A stretch of DNA of 64,000 nucleotides from Candidatus Kaiserbacteria bacterium (GTDB lineage Bacteria; Patescibacteriota; Minisyncoccia; Phycocordibacterales; UBA2100), in NCBI GenBank assembly GCA_027083345.1, contig JALWOZ010000010.1, positions 7,301 to 71,300 of the forward strand, read 5' to 3'. Positions 51,598 to 56,318 of the stretch are shown one piece after another. The position numbers and the translations under genes are program-made. The notes under the pieces are model-generated. The model saw nothing but the letters and a program-made list of their open reading frames with translations, was not told the origin of the DNA and did not search any database. The number at the start of each line of letters is the position of its first letter. Position 1 is the first letter of the stretch.

Positions 51598-52755
51598 TCA
51601 AAATGCACGAGGAGCAAATGGATTACTAGGAGCCTCATCTGTATTATCTACATTGTTAAAATTAGATATATCATCTAATTGCTTAACAACTTCCATAATA
51701 TCGTCAGTGGCGGAAGAGGGAGGCTCTATATCGTAACTAGGCTGAGCAAATGGATTTGTAATCTCTTCATTTTTGCTCTCTGTATTTGTAGTTGGATTAG
51801 ATGAATTAAATGTATTATTAAATCTCTCTACTGCATCATCTTCTATAGCTATATTTGTGTCATTAGTCTCACTCTCTTGTAGTGGCTCAGCTAGAGGAGC
51901 AACCTGTAATTGCTCTTGAGAGGCTTTATCTTTAGCTAACATGTCTAACAATCTTTTAAGATCCTCTGGGGAGAAGTAGTCGATATGTACTTTACCTCCA
52001 TTTTTAGATCGTTGTTCTATCTGTACTCTTGTACCTAAGGTCTCTGTTAATTCCTTTTCCAAACCTATAAGCTCTGGAGAGAGGTCTTGTTTGCGAGCCT
52101 TGTCTGTAGCAATCCTTCTGGCAATGCGCTCACTCTCACGTACTGTGAGCTTTTTAGTAGTAATCTCTTTGAAGAGGGTATCTCTCTCTGCCGGCCTCTC
52201 TCCTAACATCAATAAGGGCCGAGCATGCCCCTCACTTATATTACCAGCTACCAATGCTGATTGTATGTTCTCCGGTAGGCCAAGTAGGCGCAAAGTGTTA
52301 GAAACATACTCACGACTCTTGCCCACCTTCTTTGCAATCTCAATGTGTTTTAAATTAAACTCATCTACAAGTTGTTTAAATGCCAAAGCTCTATCTATAG
52401 CATTTAGATCTTCTCTTTGAAGGTTTTCTATTATGGCTAACTCTAGCTTCATTTTGCTAGTCTCCTCTTGGGCTCGTATTATCACTGGCACCTGAGGTAT
52501 ACCGGCCATCTTACTAGCTCTGAGTCTACGCTCTCCGGAGATAAGCTCATACTCTACTGTTATACCCCCATCATCACGCTCAGTTTCTTTACGAGTTACT
52601 ACCAATGGTTGTAGTACCCCATATTGCCTTATAGAGCCCGCCAGCTCCGCTATCTTATCATCATTAAACTCTTTACGAGGTTGATATGGATTAGGGCTTA
52701 TCCTATCTACCTCAACCCAAAATATACTATTATTATAAAATTCACTCATTGCCAC
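51598..52755 (-). CDS. parB: ParB/Spo0J family partition protein with long low-complexity C-terminal tail
   Basis: ParB box GERRLRAS. N-terminal VDRISPNPYQPRK. HTH region. The last 120 aa or so are disordered and acidic. Confidence 0.75.
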   Translation of the reverse strand: MAMSEFYNNSIFWVEVDRISPNPYQPRKEFNDDKIAELAGSIRQYGVLQPLVVTRKETERDDGGITVEYELISGERRLRASKMAGIPQVPVIIRAQEETSKMKLELAIIENLQREDLNAIDRALAFKQLVDEFNLKHIEIAKKVGKSREYVSNTLRLLGLPENIQSALVAGNISEGHARPLLMLGERPAERDTLFKEITTKKLTVRESERIARRIATDKARKQDLSPELIGLEKELTETLGTRVQIEQRSKNGGKVHIDYFSPEDLKRLLDMLAKDKASQEQLQVAPLAEPLQESETNDTNIAIEDDAVERFNNTFNSSNPTTNTESKNEEITNPFAQPSYDIEPPSSATDDIMEVVKQLDDISNFNNVDNTDEAPSNPFAPRAF

Positions 52756-52790
52756 TTATTCTACCACAGACTCGAATTGCTAAATATTTA

Positions 52791-53066
52791 TCACTGTGCA
52801 TAACAGGTGCTTATTATAGAGTTGACTTTATACTCATAAGCATCAAGTTTATTATCTGCCCTAGCTAAAGCCAAGCCTCTAAGTAACAGTAACCCCTCCT
52901 CATAAGACGAATATTGTTTTGCCCTATTTATATGACCCAATGTTTTATATGCTCTTGTGAGAGAGCTTTTATACCTTGTTTCATTATTGTCCTTAGATGC
53001 TCTTATGCACCTAGCTACATCTGCTCCGAGATTAGCAAAATAAAACTTTGTACTTTTATTTTCCAT
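52791..53066 (-). CDS. hypothetical protein (91 aa)
   Basis: ORF only; no motif recognised. Confidence 0.25.
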   Translation of the reverse strand: MENKSTKFYFANLGADVARCIRASKDNNETRYKSSLTRAYKTLGHINRAKQYSSYEEGLLLLRGLALARADNKLDAYEYKVNSIISTCYAQ

Positions 53067-53082
53067 TTTTATTATTAAAAAC

Positions 53083-53454
53083 TTATAACTCTAAATACGG
53101 CACAACTTTCTGTATTATATTTTTCATTTTGGCTCTTATATCAGCATCTTCAACTTCCATACTCCTATTGCCTTGTGCTGGTCGTATGTTTATTAACGAT
53201 ATATATTCCAATGCATCCTCTCCCTTTTCATCTTGGTAAATATTAAATCCCCAAATATTAGGTTGTTGTGAGCCATGTGCTATAAGTACATTATTGGCAT
53301 CCATATGCCACTCTCCTCCTAATGCAATAAGACCTGTATCTATATCGACAACTCCTTTCACAAGTATCTTATGCCACTTATCTGCCAAATCATTAAGTGT
53401 ATCTGCACTGACAACATCTCGCACAATTATTATGTCTTTAGTTGTTGCTGTCAT
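53083..53454 (-). CDS. conserved hypothetical protein (123 aa)
   Basis: ORF with a pattern VKGVVDIDTGLIALGGEWHMD...NIWGFNIY that resembles a small conserved DUF family. No function recognised. Confidence 0.3.
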   Translation of the reverse strand: MTATTKDIIIVRDVVSADTLNDLADKWHKILVKGVVDIDTGLIALGGEWHMDANNVLIAHGSQQPNIWGFNIYQDEKGEDALEYISLINIRPAQGNRSMEVEDADIRAKMKNIIQKVVPYLEL

Positions 53455-53518
53455 GCTTAATATAATAGCACAAAGTTAGAAACTATGTATAATTGTAAAC
53501 GCATTTAAATAATATAAT

Positions 53519-53571
53519 GCCGGAGTGGCGAAACCTGCCTGCCGGCAGGCAGGTCGGTAGACGCGTACGAC
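53519..53571 (+). pseudogene. partial duplicate of tRNA-Leu(CAA) 5' half (positions 1 to the anticodon stem), interrupted by a 20-nt palindrome
   Basis: GCCGGAGTGGCGAAA is identical to the start of the intact tRNA at 53836. Then comes the insert CCTGCCTGCCGGCAGGCAGG, then TCGGTAGACGCGTACGAC (2 mismatches to TTGGTAGACGCGCACGAC). Similarity ends at the anticodon loop. Confidence 0.6.
53534..53553. repeat. 20-nt GC-rich perfect palindrome CCTGCCTGCCGGCAGGCAGG inserted in the D-loop of the tRNA fragment
   Basis: Seen directly. 75% GC in an otherwise AT-rich locus. Self-complementary. Confidence 0.6.
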
Positions 53572-53595
53572 GTTCACAACTGTTCAAATATATAA

Positions 53596-53835
53596 ATGGA
53601 CTACATAGTATATGCAATCAGTAGTGTACATAGAAATTATGTATATATCGGAATGACTAACAATTTAAACCGGCGATTATCTGAACACAATAAAGGTTAT
53701 AACAAAACTACTAGACCATACGCACCTTTTGTACTATTATACTCTGAACCTGTTCCAAATCGTATAGAAGCTCGTAAACGAGAAAAATATCTAAAAAGCG
53801 GAGTAGGTAGAGAGTTTTTAAAGAAACTTAAATAA
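53596..53835 (+). CDS. GIY-YIG family nuclease (small, YhbQ/UPF0213-like)
   Basis: YVYIGMTNNLNRRLSEHNKG contains the GIY-YIG motifs (Y.YIG...R...EHN). Confidence 0.65.
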   Translation: MDYIVYAISSVHRNYVYIGMTNNLNRRLSEHNKGYNKTTRPYAPFVLLYSEPVPNRIEARKREKYLKSGVGREFLKKLK

Positions 53836-53917
53836 GCCGGAGTGGCGAAATTGGTAGACGCGCACGACTCAAAATCGTGTGAGGCAACTCATGAGGGTTC
53901 AAGTCCCTCCTCCGGCA
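53836..53917 (+). tRNA. tRNA-Leu(CAA)
   Basis: GCCGGAG acceptor, D-arm GCGAAATTGGTAGACGC, anticodon stem CACGA/TCGTG with loop CTCAAAA, long variable arm, T-loop GGTTCAAGTCC, 3' acceptor CTCCGGC plus A. Confidence 0.75.
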
Positions 53918-53928
53918 CCGCAACACAA

Positions 53929-54711
53929 TTAAATACCTTCAATAAAAGACCTTAGTATATTATTAAATTCTTTAGGCCTATCTAAATTTGCAAAATGTCC
54001 TGCACCCTTTAACTCAACTAATTTAAAATTATCTTTCTCTTGCCAAGTATTGATAGAACTCTTTATGACCCTATTAATCTCCTTATCCATTTCCCCTCTT
54101 ATTATCGTGGCAGGGATACTAGACTTCTTTATAACTTCTAAATAATTAAAATTTACTAAATGCGGGATTATATTTAAAATAGTCCTCTTTTTTGTTTCTT
54201 TTACCATATCTTTAATCTGTTTTCTTGAATCTTTATTCATTCCAGCTATAGATGCTAAATTCGCAATTGTCTCTATACTAAATAAAACATAAAGTAGCCT
54301 TACAAACTTGATTGTAATTTGTGATTTTGTCAATTGTGCAGTTGTACCAAAAGTAGTAAAAGATAACAACCTGTTGGCATCCTCTTTTAATAACTCATAA
54401 CCTACATTCCCACCTAAAGAATTCCCGACATAGTGCACCTTTTCTATGCCTAATATATTTAAAAGCTTAATTATATCGTCTTTCAACTTAGATAAATCAA
54501 AATCTGATTCTGTTGATTTTGCACAGAACCCTGTATTACCATGACCACGAAGACTTATAGAGATGACTTTATAAGTATCTTGGAAAAAACTATGTTGATT
54601 TTTGAATTGGTTTAAGTTAACGCCTAACCCATGAACAAAAACAATAGCCTCCCTATTCCTCTCTCCTGATAAACAATATTCTAGATTAATCTTCCCTAAG
54701 TTAACTCTCAT
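53929..54711 (-). CDS. alpha/beta-fold hydrolase
   Basis: HGLGVN oxyanion region and GNSLGG nucleophile elbow (GxSxG). Confidence 0.6.
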   Translation of the reverse strand: MRVNLGKINLEYCLSGERNREAIVFVHGLGVNLNQFKNQHSFFQDTYKVISISLRGHGNTGFCAKSTESDFDLSKLKDDIIKLLNILGIEKVHYVGNSLGGNVGYELLKEDANRLLSFTTFGTTAQLTKSQITIKFVRLLYVLFSIETIANLASIAGMNKDSRKQIKDMVKETKKRTILNIIPHLVNFNYLEVIKKSSIPATIIRGEMDKEINRVIKSSINTWQEKDNFKLVELKGAGHFANLDRPKEFNNILRSFIEGI

Positions 54712-54734
54712 AATATACCAACCCGGTTAATATA

Positions 54735-56318
54735 TTATTTTACAGTGATATTCCCCATTATTTTTGGATCTGCACCCTTTTGTTGCAATAAAATGGGAAA
54801 ATCTCCAACTTTGTCTGCCTTAAATACAATCACTCTATCATTACCAGATGAAAACTTAGTCTGTACTTTGAAATCTTTAATCAATATTTTTGAAACTCCT
54901 TCATGAGATCTATACCGTAAGGTTATTGTGTCGTTCAGTGCAACAATTAAAGAAGAGGGACTCAAAATATTTTTATCACCAATTAAAGTAAATTCTTTTT
55001 GCCCTTTAACTACAGGTGTTGCCACGGCGTCGCCTCCTATAAGATCTTTATTCTCATTAGTAATAAAAGGAATTGGGTCTCCATTATCATCTCCTAAAGT
55101 AATATCCTTATTAAAGATATTCTCTCCTGCAAAATTCATAAAAATACCATTTTGTGTGTCAGCCTGAGCATCAAAAAACAGCTCTCCATCATCTGAATCT
55201 GATATCCTCAAATACAAATGAGATGAAGGCGAAGATTGTAAAGACGTCTTTATATATGTACCTATCCTAGGTATAAAAAATACCAAAGATACGATTATAT
55301 AACTTAAGGCCATCATCCACACGACTCCCATACTTATAGCGAGTGTTGCATTAATTTTTGTTTTTAAAAAGACTAACCACTTACCAATCATAAAGATAAA
55401 CAATAATGGGACTATTATGAGAGTATACAAACTCATAGCTAGCAACAATAATACGTTCTTAGAGAAGATATCTGCAAACAACTGCTGAGTTGCGACATCC
55501 ATGTCTACCACAAACCCTCCACTAAATATAGCCATTAGTACCATTGTAAGTATGATCATAACTAACCCAGTAATAAACATTGTTAAGAATCCAATAAATT
55601 TACGAGCAAATACAAAAAGAGCCTGTAATGTATACAATCCATTAGTACTTATCTCTTCTCCATTCTTACGACCCCGTTTAAAAAGATATTTCCCTAAGAA
55701 ACTTTTGGTTCTCTCTTTAGAATCTTCCGGAATATCATTTAACCTATCTTTTACATAACTTTTAACAGATTCAAGATTTACACTATCACCATACATGGCC
55801 ATCTTCTCTGACTGTGTCTTTGCTTTGGGAACTGCCATCCATAATACAATATATACCCAAAACCCAATAGAACTAAAGAGTAATGAAATTAAAAATAATA
55901 TACGAACTATCACTACATCCACACTAAAATATTTTGCAAGTCCACTTGCCACACCAGCTACCAATCCATCATCTCCGTCTCTATACAAACGTTTTTTATT
56001 GCTAGATTTTTTAGAAGCATCTTTATATGTACTCCCCTCTGACTCATCTGCTGTACGTAAATCTTCTATTGAACCTAATTCTTCTATAACATGCTCAACA
56101 TCCTGCACTGTAATAGCCTTATTAACACTCTTATCACATGTAAGCATCTTCTCTGCAATCCCAGATTCAATGTCTTTTATTATCTCATCACTCAACTCTT
56201 TATCTGTATCTTGAAAATAATGTGTAATATCTGTAATGTACGTCTTTAGTATTTGATATGCATCTTCTTCTATTGAAAAAGTGATACCAGAAAGTGTAAT
56301 TTGTTTTGCATTTTTCAT
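54735..56318 (-). CDS. PspC-domain membrane protein (stress-response, PadR-associated)
   Basis: LYRDGDDGLVAGVASGLAKYFSVDVVIVRILFLISLLF... is a canonical PspC domain. Additional TMs and a C-terminal extracytoplasmic beta-rich domain follow. Confidence 0.6.
   Translation of the reverse strand: MKNAKQITLSGITFSIEEDAYQILKTYITDITHYFQDTDKELSDEIIKDIESGIAEKMLTCDKSVNKAITVQDVEHVIEELGSIEDLRTADESEGSTYKDASKKSSNKKRLYRDGDDGLVAGVASGLAKYFSVDVVIVRILFLISLLFSSIGFWVYIVLWMAVPKAKTQSEKMAMYGDSVNLESVKSYVKDRLNDIPEDSKERTKSFLGKYLFKRGRKNGEEISTNGLYTLQALFVFARKFIGFLTMFITGLVMIILTMVLMAIFSGGFVVDMDVATQQLFADIFSKNVLLLLAMSLYTLIIVPLLFIFMIGKWLVFLKTKINATLAISMGVVWMMALSYIIVSLVFFIPRIGTYIKTSLQSSPSSHLYLRISDSDDGELFFDAQADTQNGIFMNFAGENIFNKDITLGDDNGDPIPFITNENKDLIGGDAVATPVVKGQKEFTLIGDKNILSPSSLIVALNDTITLRYRSHEGVSKILIKDFKVQTKFSSGNDRVIVFKADKVGDFPILLQQKGADPKIMGNITVK

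Follow-up and report, generated by a model that had tools for sequence, protein, structure and literature searches.

Single-domain GIY-YIG nucleases of the Ssn family bind and cut single-stranded DNA beside a hairpin repeat, copies of which flank the nuclease gene as well (PMC11893778), and the IS-like look of the NTS-ssnA-NTS arrangement was noted by Chenal et al. 2025 (PMC11893778). Here we analysed a locus in a 64-kb stretch of Candidatus Kaiserbacteria DNA (the window) that is one copy of a widespread, apparently undescribed cassette of ~300 bp. The conserved parts of the cassette are the gene of a 77-80-aa single-domain GIY-YIG protein and a near-invariant 20-bp palindrome, termed PAL. 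Ssn, consisting of SsnA with NTS/SRM repeats, is the nearest described system: it likewise has a small single-domain GIY-YIG protein (79 aa in the window) whose gene adjoins a conserved hairpin-forming palindromic repeat, present also in many gene-free copies (for PAL, in metagenomes and viral contigs). Nevertheless, PAL and its flanks do not fit the SRM motif HGTCWY...RNCYNB, for which the whole window has no match; PAL itself is perfectly palindromic and symmetric, lacks a conserved oriented flank and in most cases accompanies the gene on a single side. Furthermore, the cassette gene lies within a tRNA gene that is partly duplicated, and tRNA is unmentioned in PMC11893778. The cassette is set apart from the Ssn family (cd10448) by repeat motif and tRNA link. 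A literature keyword search that paired GIY-YIG with tRNA terms did not turn up any account of the association, and the PAL sequence was likewise not found in the literature.

Several other systems share single traits with the cassette. Free-standing homing endonucleases (T4 Seg enzymes such as SegB, and I-TevI) have a GIY-YIG catalytic domain, a selfish gene (putatively so in the cassette) and a conserved target with occupied and empty sites whose function is preserved. However, they are proteins of 200-250 aa with linker and DNA-binding domains, neither of which the 79-aa cassette protein possesses, and they have no companion palindrome or target duplication. Proteins of the UPF0213/YhbQ and SLX1 groups are the best matches by sequence profile and structure; UPF0213 genes are regarded as normal parts of the chromosome whose role is unknown, whereas the cassette gene is not found at a stable locus, and SLX1 differs in requiring the partner SLX4. 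We know of no reported association of UPF0213 proteins with tRNA genes or palindromes. Tyrosine-integrase islands and prophages also insert in a tRNA gene, restore it through a carried partial tRNA and leave a direct repeat. These elements span kilobases, carry an integrase gene and duplicate the tRNA 3' end, while the cassette measures ~300 bp, has no integrase, duplicates either tRNA end and carries a spare piece split by PAL. The REP/BIME-RAYT systems resemble the cassette in combining one gene with many short palindromic repeats recognised as hairpins (proposed below for PAL), but their enzyme is an HUH tyrosine transposase (Y1 HUH) and not a GIY-YIG hydrolytic nuclease, and REPs are not tied to tRNA genes.

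An intact tRNA-Leu(CAA) was called by ARAGORN at 53836-53919 on the plus strand, where Rfam gave a tRNA match of 60.8 bits (53836-53917). Its first 15 nt (GCCGGAGTGGCGAAA; acceptor 5' strand and start of the D-arm) are repeated on the same strand at 53519-53533, 317 nt 5' of the intact copy and identical at 15/15 positions to 53836-53850. This outer segment of the tRNA fragment is followed at 53534-53553 by PAL, a perfect palindrome of the form (CCTG)2-CCGG-(CAGG)2 (CCTGCCTGCCGGCAGGCAGG), which interrupts the fragment's D-loop between nt 15 and nt 16 of the tRNA. The inner segment at 53554-53571 (plus strand; TCGGTAGACGCGTACGAC) aligns with tRNA nt 16-33, that is, with the remainder of the D-arm and the 5' strand of the anticodon stem, with 2 mismatches. 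An AT-rich spacer read from the sequence (53572-53595, plus strand), possibly degenerate anticodon-loop sequence, separates the fragment from the start codon; such spacers measure ~0 to 40 nt in related loci. The nuclease gene (53596-53835, plus strand) encodes 79 aa, and its TAA stop codon at 53833-53835 abuts nt 1 of the intact tRNA. The first-pass annotation, made from the sequence alone, had described the 15-nt repeat, the 20-nt palindrome, the 18-nt match with 2 mismatches and the GIY-YIG ORF touching the tRNA, and all of these were recovered. It had also considered that the upstream copy might be a complete, different tRNA; neither ARAGORN nor Rfam called a tRNA there and the downstream tRNA is complete, and a second, split or permuted tRNA was rejected. 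PAL is unique in the 64-kb window even at 3 mismatches and arose in 0/100 shuffles, and the window contains no further PAL copies or GIY-YIG paralogues. Chance falls far short of explaining the locus pattern, given that 80 other genomes (the best 80 of 570 relatives) share the architecture.

The protein matched the Pfam GIY-YIG family PF01541 with 62 bits (cut-off 22.6, E=6.9e-17). The residues Y6, Y17, R27, H31 and E63, corresponding to the GIY Tyr, YIG Tyr, Arg, His and Glu, are all present and are invariant or at least 90% conserved over 32 relatives. The AF2 model (pLDDT 94.8) predicts strands at 3-10, 16-21 and 45-53 and helices at 24-33, 56-67 and 69-78, a three-stranded sheet with flanking helices that matches GIY-YIG structures. 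Profile searches revealed distant similarity to 1ywl (E=2.9e-6) and 1zg2 (E=1.3e-5); in Foldseek 1zg2 was the top match (32% identical) and the structure-specific nuclease Slx1 aligned with TM 0.71 and rmsd 2.2 Å. The protein stops right after the catalytic domain, its Pfam matches are of GIY-YIG type only, and no NCBIfam model scored above cut-off. With dN/dS of 0.11-0.17 in the closest family pairs, the nuclease is under purifying selection.

Comparison with relatives, which the first-pass annotation had suggested, defined the empty site. Genomes with a 76-79% identical DUF5674 neighbour gene have a tRNA-Leu(CAA) at the same place and no GIY-YIG gene; these empty sites (L082-L088) belong to Patescibacteria closely related to the window organism. 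In the window the DUF5674 start codon lies 64 nt from nt 1 of the fragment, and the spacing is the same in the closest relatives, L082 and L083. The tRNA of the empty-site relatives begins exactly at the start position of the window fragment, the outer segment occupying the position of their tRNA nt 1, and therefore the window carries a 317-bp insertion. The intact tRNA is thus displaced 317 nt downstream of its ancestral position, and the region at 53462-53518 (plus strand), which aligns with the sequence upstream of the tRNA in L082, L083, L086 and L088, is the resident upstream region of the tRNA gene (putative promoter and leader). It would presumably act as the promoter; a sigma-70 scan of 53462-53518 gave no plus-strand site. 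The cassette entered tRNA-Leu(CAA) in such a way that the old upstream region now faces a dead, PAL-split 5' piece (nt 1-33). With a repeat period of 317 nt, the insertion can be parsed as 53534-53850 (plus strand), comprising PAL, the inner segment, the spacer, the ORF and tRNA nt 1-15, a block absent from the empty-site relatives; this is one of several equivalent parses, and the 15-nt repeat means that the true boundaries are not fixable. The inner segment shares TCGG with the tRNA of the empty-site relatives, where the intact window tRNA has TTGG, a single informative site that is too weak to separate resident from imported tRNA parts.

We confirmed 570 relatives in one-genome-per-species contigs and retained the best 80 for locus analysis. 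These 80 loci come from at least 5 phyla, and their nucleases are 56-71% identical to the window protein. Among them the gene directly adjoins tRNA-Leu, rarely tRNA-Ser, on the same strand: such a tRNA or a Leu-like call was directly adjacent in 66/80, lying just downstream of the stop codon in 38 of the 66 and just upstream of the start codon in 28, while the remaining 14/80 are arrays, contig ends or fragment-only loci. The other flank of the gene is a partial copy of the same tRNA, with alignment scores far above those of shuffles; it is the 5' part when upstream of the gene and the 3' part when downstream. The combination of gene, fragment and intact tRNA was found at all five tRNA-Leu isoacceptors in several phyla. 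The anticodon-loop breakpoint proposed by the first-pass annotation holds for the window but is not a fixed feature: the fragment break ranges from ~nt 24 to nt 71 in related loci. Tandem arrays and gene-less units of PAL plus fragment also occur (L006, L007, L039, L044, L066, L077). The same layout was seen for GIY-YIG genes of lower similarity (38-47% identical), which lie at tRNA-Lys, tRNA-Asn and tRNA-Ser and bear the identical PAL, and PAL-split fragments were in addition found at tRNA-Val and tRNA-Ala. In a neighbour-joining tree of 81 proteins the phyla are intermixed, and the tree is too star-like to tell an inherited from a re-created PAL position or layout. Together with the empty sites, the recurrence of gene, fragment and tRNA across phyla upheld the earlier suggestion of a minimal mobile element that regenerates its tRNA gene.

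PAL or a close variant lies at most 160 nt from the gene in 74/80 loci (best 80 of 570 relatives), usually on one side. In every locus that was read it interrupts the partial tRNA copy, neither removing nor duplicating a tRNA base, at the positions 9|10, 14-15|16, 23|24, 39|40, T-stem|T-loop or T-loop|T-stem. It is identical at 20/20 positions in Bacteroidota, Ignavibacteriota, Patescibacteria and Planctomycetota and is near-invariant despite saturated synonymous sites of the gene (median synonymous divergence 0.81). As single-stranded DNA it was computed to form an 8-bp hairpin (-8 kcal/mol). Variants of PAL that are asymmetric can face either way with respect to the gene, which speaks for a function at the level of DNA and not of RNA. 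The type of variant co-varies with three residues close to the active-site helix (22, 30 and 36), only a hint as phylogeny confounds the signal. Lone copies of PAL are found as well, at many sites outside tRNA genes in metagenomes and viral contigs. The palindrome as an independent insertion, suggested by the first-pass annotation, agrees with these lone copies but not with its constant companionship with the gene family. Among exact-PAL metagenome and viral stretches a GIY-YIG gene was detectable in 7/115, so that PAL may depend on something else or on the nuclease in trans. When 1331 ORFs within 3 kb of PAL copies were clustered, only GIY-YIG genes and phage structural genes of related phages emerged; another enzyme consistently near PAL was rejected, GIY-YIG being the sole recurrent family. 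Direct flank repeats at lone PAL were found in 7/120 cases versus 1/1978 controls, four of them 14 nt long, and in the tRNA loci repeat length tracks the PAL position (9, 14-15 or 23 nt). A constant target-site duplication was rejected, and a fixed staggered cut is not supported, on account of the few flank repeats and their varying length.

On balance we favour the explanation that the locus is a selfish nuclease-plus-PAL cassette of ~300 bp targeted to tRNA genes, whose movement we infer from the comparisons above. The fragment is followed by a short spacer, the nuclease gene and then the complete tRNA right behind the stop codon, and therefore the cell keeps its tRNA. The tRNA promoter would transcribe fragment, gene and tRNA together, and RNase P would free the tRNA from the joint transcript. 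The nuclease may recognise PAL as a hairpin or cruciform, as Ssn does with the NTS hairpin, and cut at or beside it; the link between nuclease and PAL is by association only. Such a break would fall in tRNA-derived sequence, and repair or recombination could use the tRNA-derived arms flanking the gene as homology, whereby the cassette would be copied or integrated into a further gene for the same type of tRNA. This could proceed by gene conversion (homing), or an excised or tandem unit could integrate through a single crossover. Both routes would recreate the PAL-split piece, the gene and the intact tRNA, and would also account for tandem arrays and gene-less units. Targeting to tRNA-Leu would then reside in the carried arms and not in a DNA-binding domain, which the protein lacks.

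Several points stand against this proposal. At 9-23 nt, the homology arms offer little length for RecA-dependent recombination. A PAL break repaired from a PAL-free tRNA would lose PAL, which leaves the direction of the drive ambiguous. PAL is found at no fewer than 6 tRNA positions (>=6), and purely homology-based copying cannot make new ones. The detectable GIY-YIG gene in only 7 of the 115 exact-PAL stretches weighs on the same side. A further point is that the inner part of the fragment agrees, at most loci, with the tRNA next to it even in the anticodon region, a pattern that fits local duplication or orthologous-site spread better than frequent isoacceptor jumps. As to vehicles, tblastn gave no match to the nuclease in cultured phages and plasmids and IMG/VR yielded just 4 matches, three of which reached a contig end while the fourth came to within 150 nt of one. 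Cultured phages and plasmids lack the family and viral contigs nearly do, and no transfer vehicle was found.

The strongest competitor, which we nevertheless regard as unlikely, is a classical free-standing homing endonuclease that cuts duplex tRNA-Leu DNA, its gene being copied by double-strand-break repair while PAL merely makes the fragment uncuttable. The conserved target found both occupied and empty, the tight gene boundaries and the location at tRNA genes of many phyla would all suit such an enzyme, for which T4 SegB, a GIY-YIG homing endonuclease within a tRNA gene cluster (PMC2330249), sets a precedent. However, the bare 79-aa catalytic domain has no DNA-binding domain, which I-TevI and Seg enzymes need, and its fold is nearer to Slx1 and UPF0213 than to I-TevI. 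Moreover, the intact tRNA beside the gene would stay a target, and PAL is conserved far beyond what disruption needs and also spreads alone.

Less probable still is a host gene tied to class-II tRNAs, for instance a YhbQ-like gene co-transcribed with tRNA-Leu, with PAL as an RNA-stabilising or terminating hairpin and the tRNA piece as a by-product of local duplication. Strong purifying selection on the protein would be expected of such a gene, which is always on the same strand as the tRNA, and PAL lies by layout in the 5' or 3' untranslated region, where a stable hairpin could protect mRNA. Yet the gene is missing at the orthologous site of close relatives; it turns up with each of the five Leu isoacceptors, before or after the tRNA and also within arrays, gene-less units exist too, and the protein tree mixes phyla. 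The first-pass annotation had itself named a housekeeping YhbQ-like gene at a fixed position as an alternative; the position in fact varies, copies can be multiple and close relatives are empty. In addition, a flipped asymmetric PAL alters the RNA hairpin (G-U to C-A) but not the DNA site, and PAL is also found far from any such gene.

We give equally little weight to PAL being an autonomous dispersed repeat of REP or MITE type, moved by another factor, hitting redundant tRNA copies by chance and linked to the GIY-YIG gene only indirectly. Most exact copies in metagenome and viral sequences are indeed without a GIY-YIG gene in the fetched stretch, and some carry flank repeats resembling target duplications (the 7/120 versus 1/1978 above). 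Nevertheless, the proximity of PAL to the gene in 74 of the best 80 loci, the recurrence of GIY-YIG as the sole protein family near PAL copies and the identical PAL with distant GIY-YIG clades at other tRNAs all speak against this reading, and many repeats per gene are normal for Ssn/NTS (PMC11893778) and for RAYT/REP.

A remnant of an anticodon-loop group I intron with its homing endonuclease, or of an integrase-mediated island, is very improbable: fragment similarity fades near the anticodon loop and Patescibacteria do have group I introns in tRNA genes (PMC13011429), but 52500-54800 gave no Intron_gpI match at E up to 10 (the permissive Rfam scan returned tRNA only), the downstream tRNA is complete and not a 3' exon, fragment end points vary widely among loci, and the 317-bp insert encodes the 79-aa ORF alone, with no integrase and with the 5' and not the 3' tRNA end duplicated. 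The excised tRNA-intron remnant offered by the first-pass annotation is accordingly set aside, as were a group I intron and an integrase-type island as candidates. In L120 a group I intron lies in a tRNA that reads as tRNA-Asn and scores 86 bits with the same Intron_gpI model; there the GIY-YIG cassette is not part of the intron, which has an HNH-type ORF of its own.

If the cassette reading is correct, this would be a selfish gene that inhabits an essential, universally conserved gene with no intron, intein or integrase, by duplicating part of its target and marking the spare piece with a palindrome, which would constitute a new lifestyle. More tentatively, and with somewhat less than even expectation, the cassette may represent a new class of minimal autonomous mobile DNA, in which ~300 bp of nuclease gene plus PAL spreads between phyla via tRNA homology arms and regenerates the tRNA on insertion, lone PAL being its MITE-like non-autonomous derivative in bacterial and phage genomes. 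It would then be among the smallest autonomous DNA elements known to us, and its enzyme would join Ssn, as an independent second case, among the GIY-YIG nucleases that recognise a defined hairpin or palindrome. Such a small nuclease (79 aa), specific for a defined 20-nt palindrome, would have practical use as a reagent, as has been argued for Ssn enzymes, and the distribution across phyla could serve as a marker of gene flow into the ultra-small Patescibacteria. The cassette would also account for thousands of ~80-aa proteins annotated as 'GIY-YIG nuclease family protein' in Bacteroidota, Ignavibacteriota and Patescibacteria, and for neighbouring partial tRNA genes that confuse tRNA annotation and gene calling. 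Clustering of ~80-aa GIY-YIG proteins at 50% identity gave 2566 representatives, and in 23/150 representatives the translated palindrome lay inside the called protein.

The tRNA, the 15-nt repeat, the palindrome, the 18-nt match and the GIY-YIG ORF described for the locus in the first-pass annotation were all found. The intact tRNA-Leu(CAA) is located at 53836-53919 (ARAGORN; 60.8 bits with the Rfam tRNA model) and its nt 1 directly adjoins the stop codon of a 79-aa ORF at 53596-53835 that matches the Pfam GIY-YIG family (E=6.9e-17). Nucleotides 1-15 of the tRNA recur 317 nt upstream (53519-53533, the outer fragment), followed directly by the perfect 20-nt palindrome CCTGCCTGCCGGCAGGCAGG (PAL, 53534-53553) and by 18 nt corresponding to tRNA nt 16-33 with 2 mismatches (the inner fragment); ARAGORN called no tRNA in this upstream copy. 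PAL is single copy in the 64-kb window even with up to 3 mismatches allowed, and as single-stranded DNA it is computed to fold into an 8-bp hairpin of -8 kcal/mol. The fragment and PAL are also translated in a 35-aa ORF (MPEWRNLPAGRQVGRR..., 53517-53624), and the same peptide occurs as an N-terminal extension in the public family gene calls P0244 and P0266; this ORF is a recurrent annotation artefact.

The window comes from a Pacebacteria-like member of the Patescibacteria. In contigs whose neighbouring DUF5674 gene is 76-79% identical, tRNA-Leu(CAA) occupies the same place without the GIY-YIG gene. In the closest relatives 64 nt separate the DUF5674 start codon from tRNA nt 1, the same distance leads to the start of the fragment in the window, and the upstream regions can be aligned, with 317 extra bases in the window. 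The fragment therefore shows where the tRNA used to be, and the functional tRNA is now found downstream of the nuclease gene. A compact gene-plus-palindrome unit has thus entered the tRNA gene while one intact tRNA was retained, in support of the earlier proposal that a minimal mobile element regenerated the tRNA gene. In one relative with an empty site, the last approximately 20 nt of tRNA-Leu(CAA), CCAATTCCCTCCTCTGGCAC, are repeated about 180 nt downstream of the tRNA (L082:2155-2175), a pattern resembling a boundary or scar left by another small element that had integrated at the 3' end of the tRNA.

Numerous tRNA genes across many phyla carry the same cassette design. Close relatives of the protein (77-90 aa) number in the hundreds, the best 120 being 57-78% identical. 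One genome per species was scanned and the best 80 of 570 confirmed loci were kept; these span Bacteroidota, Ignavibacteriota, Balneolia, several Patescibacteria lineages, Omnitrophota and Planctomycetota, and the phyla are intermixed in a poorly resolved protein tree. ARAGORN placed a same-strand class-II tRNA directly beside the gene in 66 of the 80 loci, almost always tRNA-Leu with all five anticodons represented (tRNA-Ser in two; a Leu-like tRNA gene without an ARAGORN name in two). The tRNA begins shortly past the stop codon, usually within 13 nt, in 38 loci (downstream layout, as in the window) or ends 0-92 nt ahead of the start codon in 28 (upstream layout), while the other 14 comprise tandem arrays, loci at contig ends and loci in which fragments flank the gene on either side. 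In nearly every case a partial copy of the same tRNA lies across the gene from the intact one, with alignment scores far above shuffled controls: the 5' part from nt 1 in the downstream layout, the 3' part to the last nucleotide, often with the tRNA terminator, in the upstream layout. Fragment-PAL-gene units form tandem arrays in L007, L039, L044 and L066, gene-less units of PAL and a tRNA piece occur in L077 and L006, and in L004 two neighbouring tRNA-Leu genes carry one cassette each. In L006 (1733-2600) four tandem 192-nt units stand behind the GIY-YIG gene and an intact tRNA-Leu(CAA), each an almost complete tRNA copy without nt 1-5, with PAL at 15|16 and its own terminator; ARAGORN wrongly calls them tRNA-Leu genes. 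The family had no matches in cultured phages or plasmids and is nearly missing from viral contigs (four copies, each touching a contig end or no more than 150 nt away from one), and no vehicle for cross-phylum transfer was found among these three sources.

Both the protein and PAL are strongly constrained. The partial tRNA copy is split by PAL, or by a variant with one to a few bases changed or a larger loop, in the printed fragments, and 74 of the 80 loci have PAL-like arms no more than 160 nt from the gene. In the loci read, the insertion of PAL leaves every tRNA base present once. Its positions are 14-15|16 (the commonest), 9|10, 23|24, 39|40, the T-stem 5' strand|T-loop, the T-loop|T-stem 3' strand and, once, T-stem|acceptor; except for the D-loop site, all are stem-loop borders of the cloverleaf. 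Some ORFs of the upstream layout run into PAL and stop there, producing the recurring C-terminus '...AGLSADR*'. Translated PAL (LPAGRQ, PACRQA, LSADR) was found within mis-called extensions of 23 of 150 family representatives at 50% identity, hence the link between gene and PAL reaches far beyond the 80 loci. All 20 positions of PAL are identical between loci of different phyla even though the gene is saturated at synonymous sites (median pS 0.81), implying that the sequence itself is constrained and not just its pairing. The asymmetric variant CCTGTCTGCCGACAGGCAGG occurs in either orientation relative to the gene, which is easier to reconcile with a site in DNA than with an RNA hairpin.

Purifying selection acts on the protein (dN/dS 0.11-0.17 in the three closest pairs), and sequence comparison showed its catalytic residues to be conserved. 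The high-confidence AlphaFold model (pLDDT 94.8) is a bare GIY-YIG core, nearest among solved structures to the UPF0213 proteins 1ywl and 1zg2 and to the structure-specific nuclease Slx1 (TM 0.71, rmsd 2.2 Å), whereas I-TevI is much more distant. As the 79-aa protein has no DNA-binding domain, sequence-specific duplex recognition in the style of I-TevI is unlikely. Loci with canonical PAL and loci with variant PAL differ in residue frequencies at positions 22, 30 and 36 close to the active-site helix, which hints at co-evolution of protein and PAL but is confounded by phylogeny.

The first-pass annotation had also suggested that the palindrome may be an independent miniature insertion, and in part this holds: PAL is a dispersed repeat as well as the conserved partner of the cassette. 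Exact PAL was found in 35 viral and at least 120 metagenome stretches, far more than expected by chance for a 20-mer. In a minority the same design recurs at other tRNAs beside GIY-YIG genes that are more distantly related (38-47% identical), namely at tRNA-Lys (L196), tRNA-Asn (L167), tRNA-Ser (L173) and a tRNA reading as tRNA-Asn (L120), or as a PAL-split fragment with no gene in the fetched stretch, of tRNA-Val (L202) and tRNA-Ala (L158). Most exact copies lie in non-tRNA intergenic DNA, and among the matches listed only 7 of 115 fetched stretches hold a GIY-YIG gene, which is nevertheless the sole protein family recurring near PAL. Direct flank repeats accompany lone PAL in 7 of 120 cases, four of them 14 nt long, versus 1 of 1978 controls. 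PAL thus resembles a dispersed repeat of which an occasional master copy carries a gene, the pattern also seen for NTS with ssnA and REP with RAYT. Lone non-tRNA copies between direct repeats, often of 14 nt, include L097:8382-8429 (perfect), L126:415-462, L112, L164 and L169; such copies are often embedded in short, degenerate tandem repeats, as would arise if the target had been duplicated by repeated insertion or repair. Six exact copies stand in the 29-kb viral contig IMGVR_UViG_3300037242_000417 (L109, L116, L117), three of them sharing the longer right flank 'PAL-GGGCGGCACAA', thus PAL multiplies inside phage-like genomes too.

The alternative of an excised tRNA-intron remnant gained no support. 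Group I introns do occur in tRNA genes of Patescibacteria, and recent work on them does not use the term GIY-YIG (PMC13011429). In L120 (830-1460; IMG/VR contig IMGVR_UViG_3300035537_000177, labelled viral and Patescibacteria-like in appearance) the tRNA downstream of the GIY-YIG/PAL cassette reads as tRNA-Asn(GTT), and a group I intron, scoring 86 bits with Rfam and containing an HNH-type ORF, interrupts its anticodon loop. As the cassette with its fragment lies upstream of this intron-bearing tRNA, one tRNA gene harbours two different selfish elements, and the cassette is distinct from the intron.

To our knowledge, no single-domain GIY-YIG enzymes with a cognate repeat have been characterised other than the Ssn nucleases. 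The Ssn enzymes bind and cut single-stranded DNA beside their own NTS hairpin and are the closest analogue, but the paper describing them makes no mention of tRNA (PMC11893778) and their SRM motif is missing from PAL and the entire window. The PAL sequence was not found in the literature searched, nor did keywords retrieve a description of a GIY-YIG link to tRNA-Leu. We class the system both as an Ssn-type pair of nuclease and repeat and as a selfish element targeted to tRNA genes, and there is a fair chance that its way of moving is new in kind. Since Ssn nucleases cut beside the NTS hairpin and the fold is Slx1-like, the nuclease would recognise PAL as a hairpin or cruciform, and the break in tRNA-derived DNA would be repaired via the tRNA-derived arms. 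Drawn as a circle, all units share one order of gene, tRNA piece, PAL, rest of the tRNA piece and gene, so that a single crossover or gene conversion on one side of PAL would yield the downstream layout and on the other side the upstream layout; repeated events would give arrays, and gene loss the small units. Targeting via the carried arms would account for one clade at all tRNA-Leu isoacceptors, as these have the D-arm sequence in common, and for other clades at other tRNAs. Three difficulties stand against this model: the homology arms are short for such repair, the model supplies no source of new PAL positions, and repair of a PAL break from a tRNA without PAL would remove the palindrome, which bears on the direction of the drive.

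Two further arrangements were seen at tRNA genes. In the viral contigs L113 (2239-2330) and L090 (8570-8660), PAL sits exactly at the variable-loop position of tRNA-Met; the L113 copy is still called by ARAGORN as a 92-nt tRNA-Met, and with PAL as a long extra arm such a tRNA might still work, then resembling a class-II tRNA. In L158 (175-380) an intact tRNA-Ala(CGC), flanked by the short inverted repeats CTGCTATTGCC and GGCAATAGCAG, is enclosed by two pieces of a different tRNA-Ala, a 5' one and a 3' one, whose acceptor halves pair with each other. PAL is located within the 3' piece, and the arrangement has the appearance of one complete tRNA gene placed inside another.
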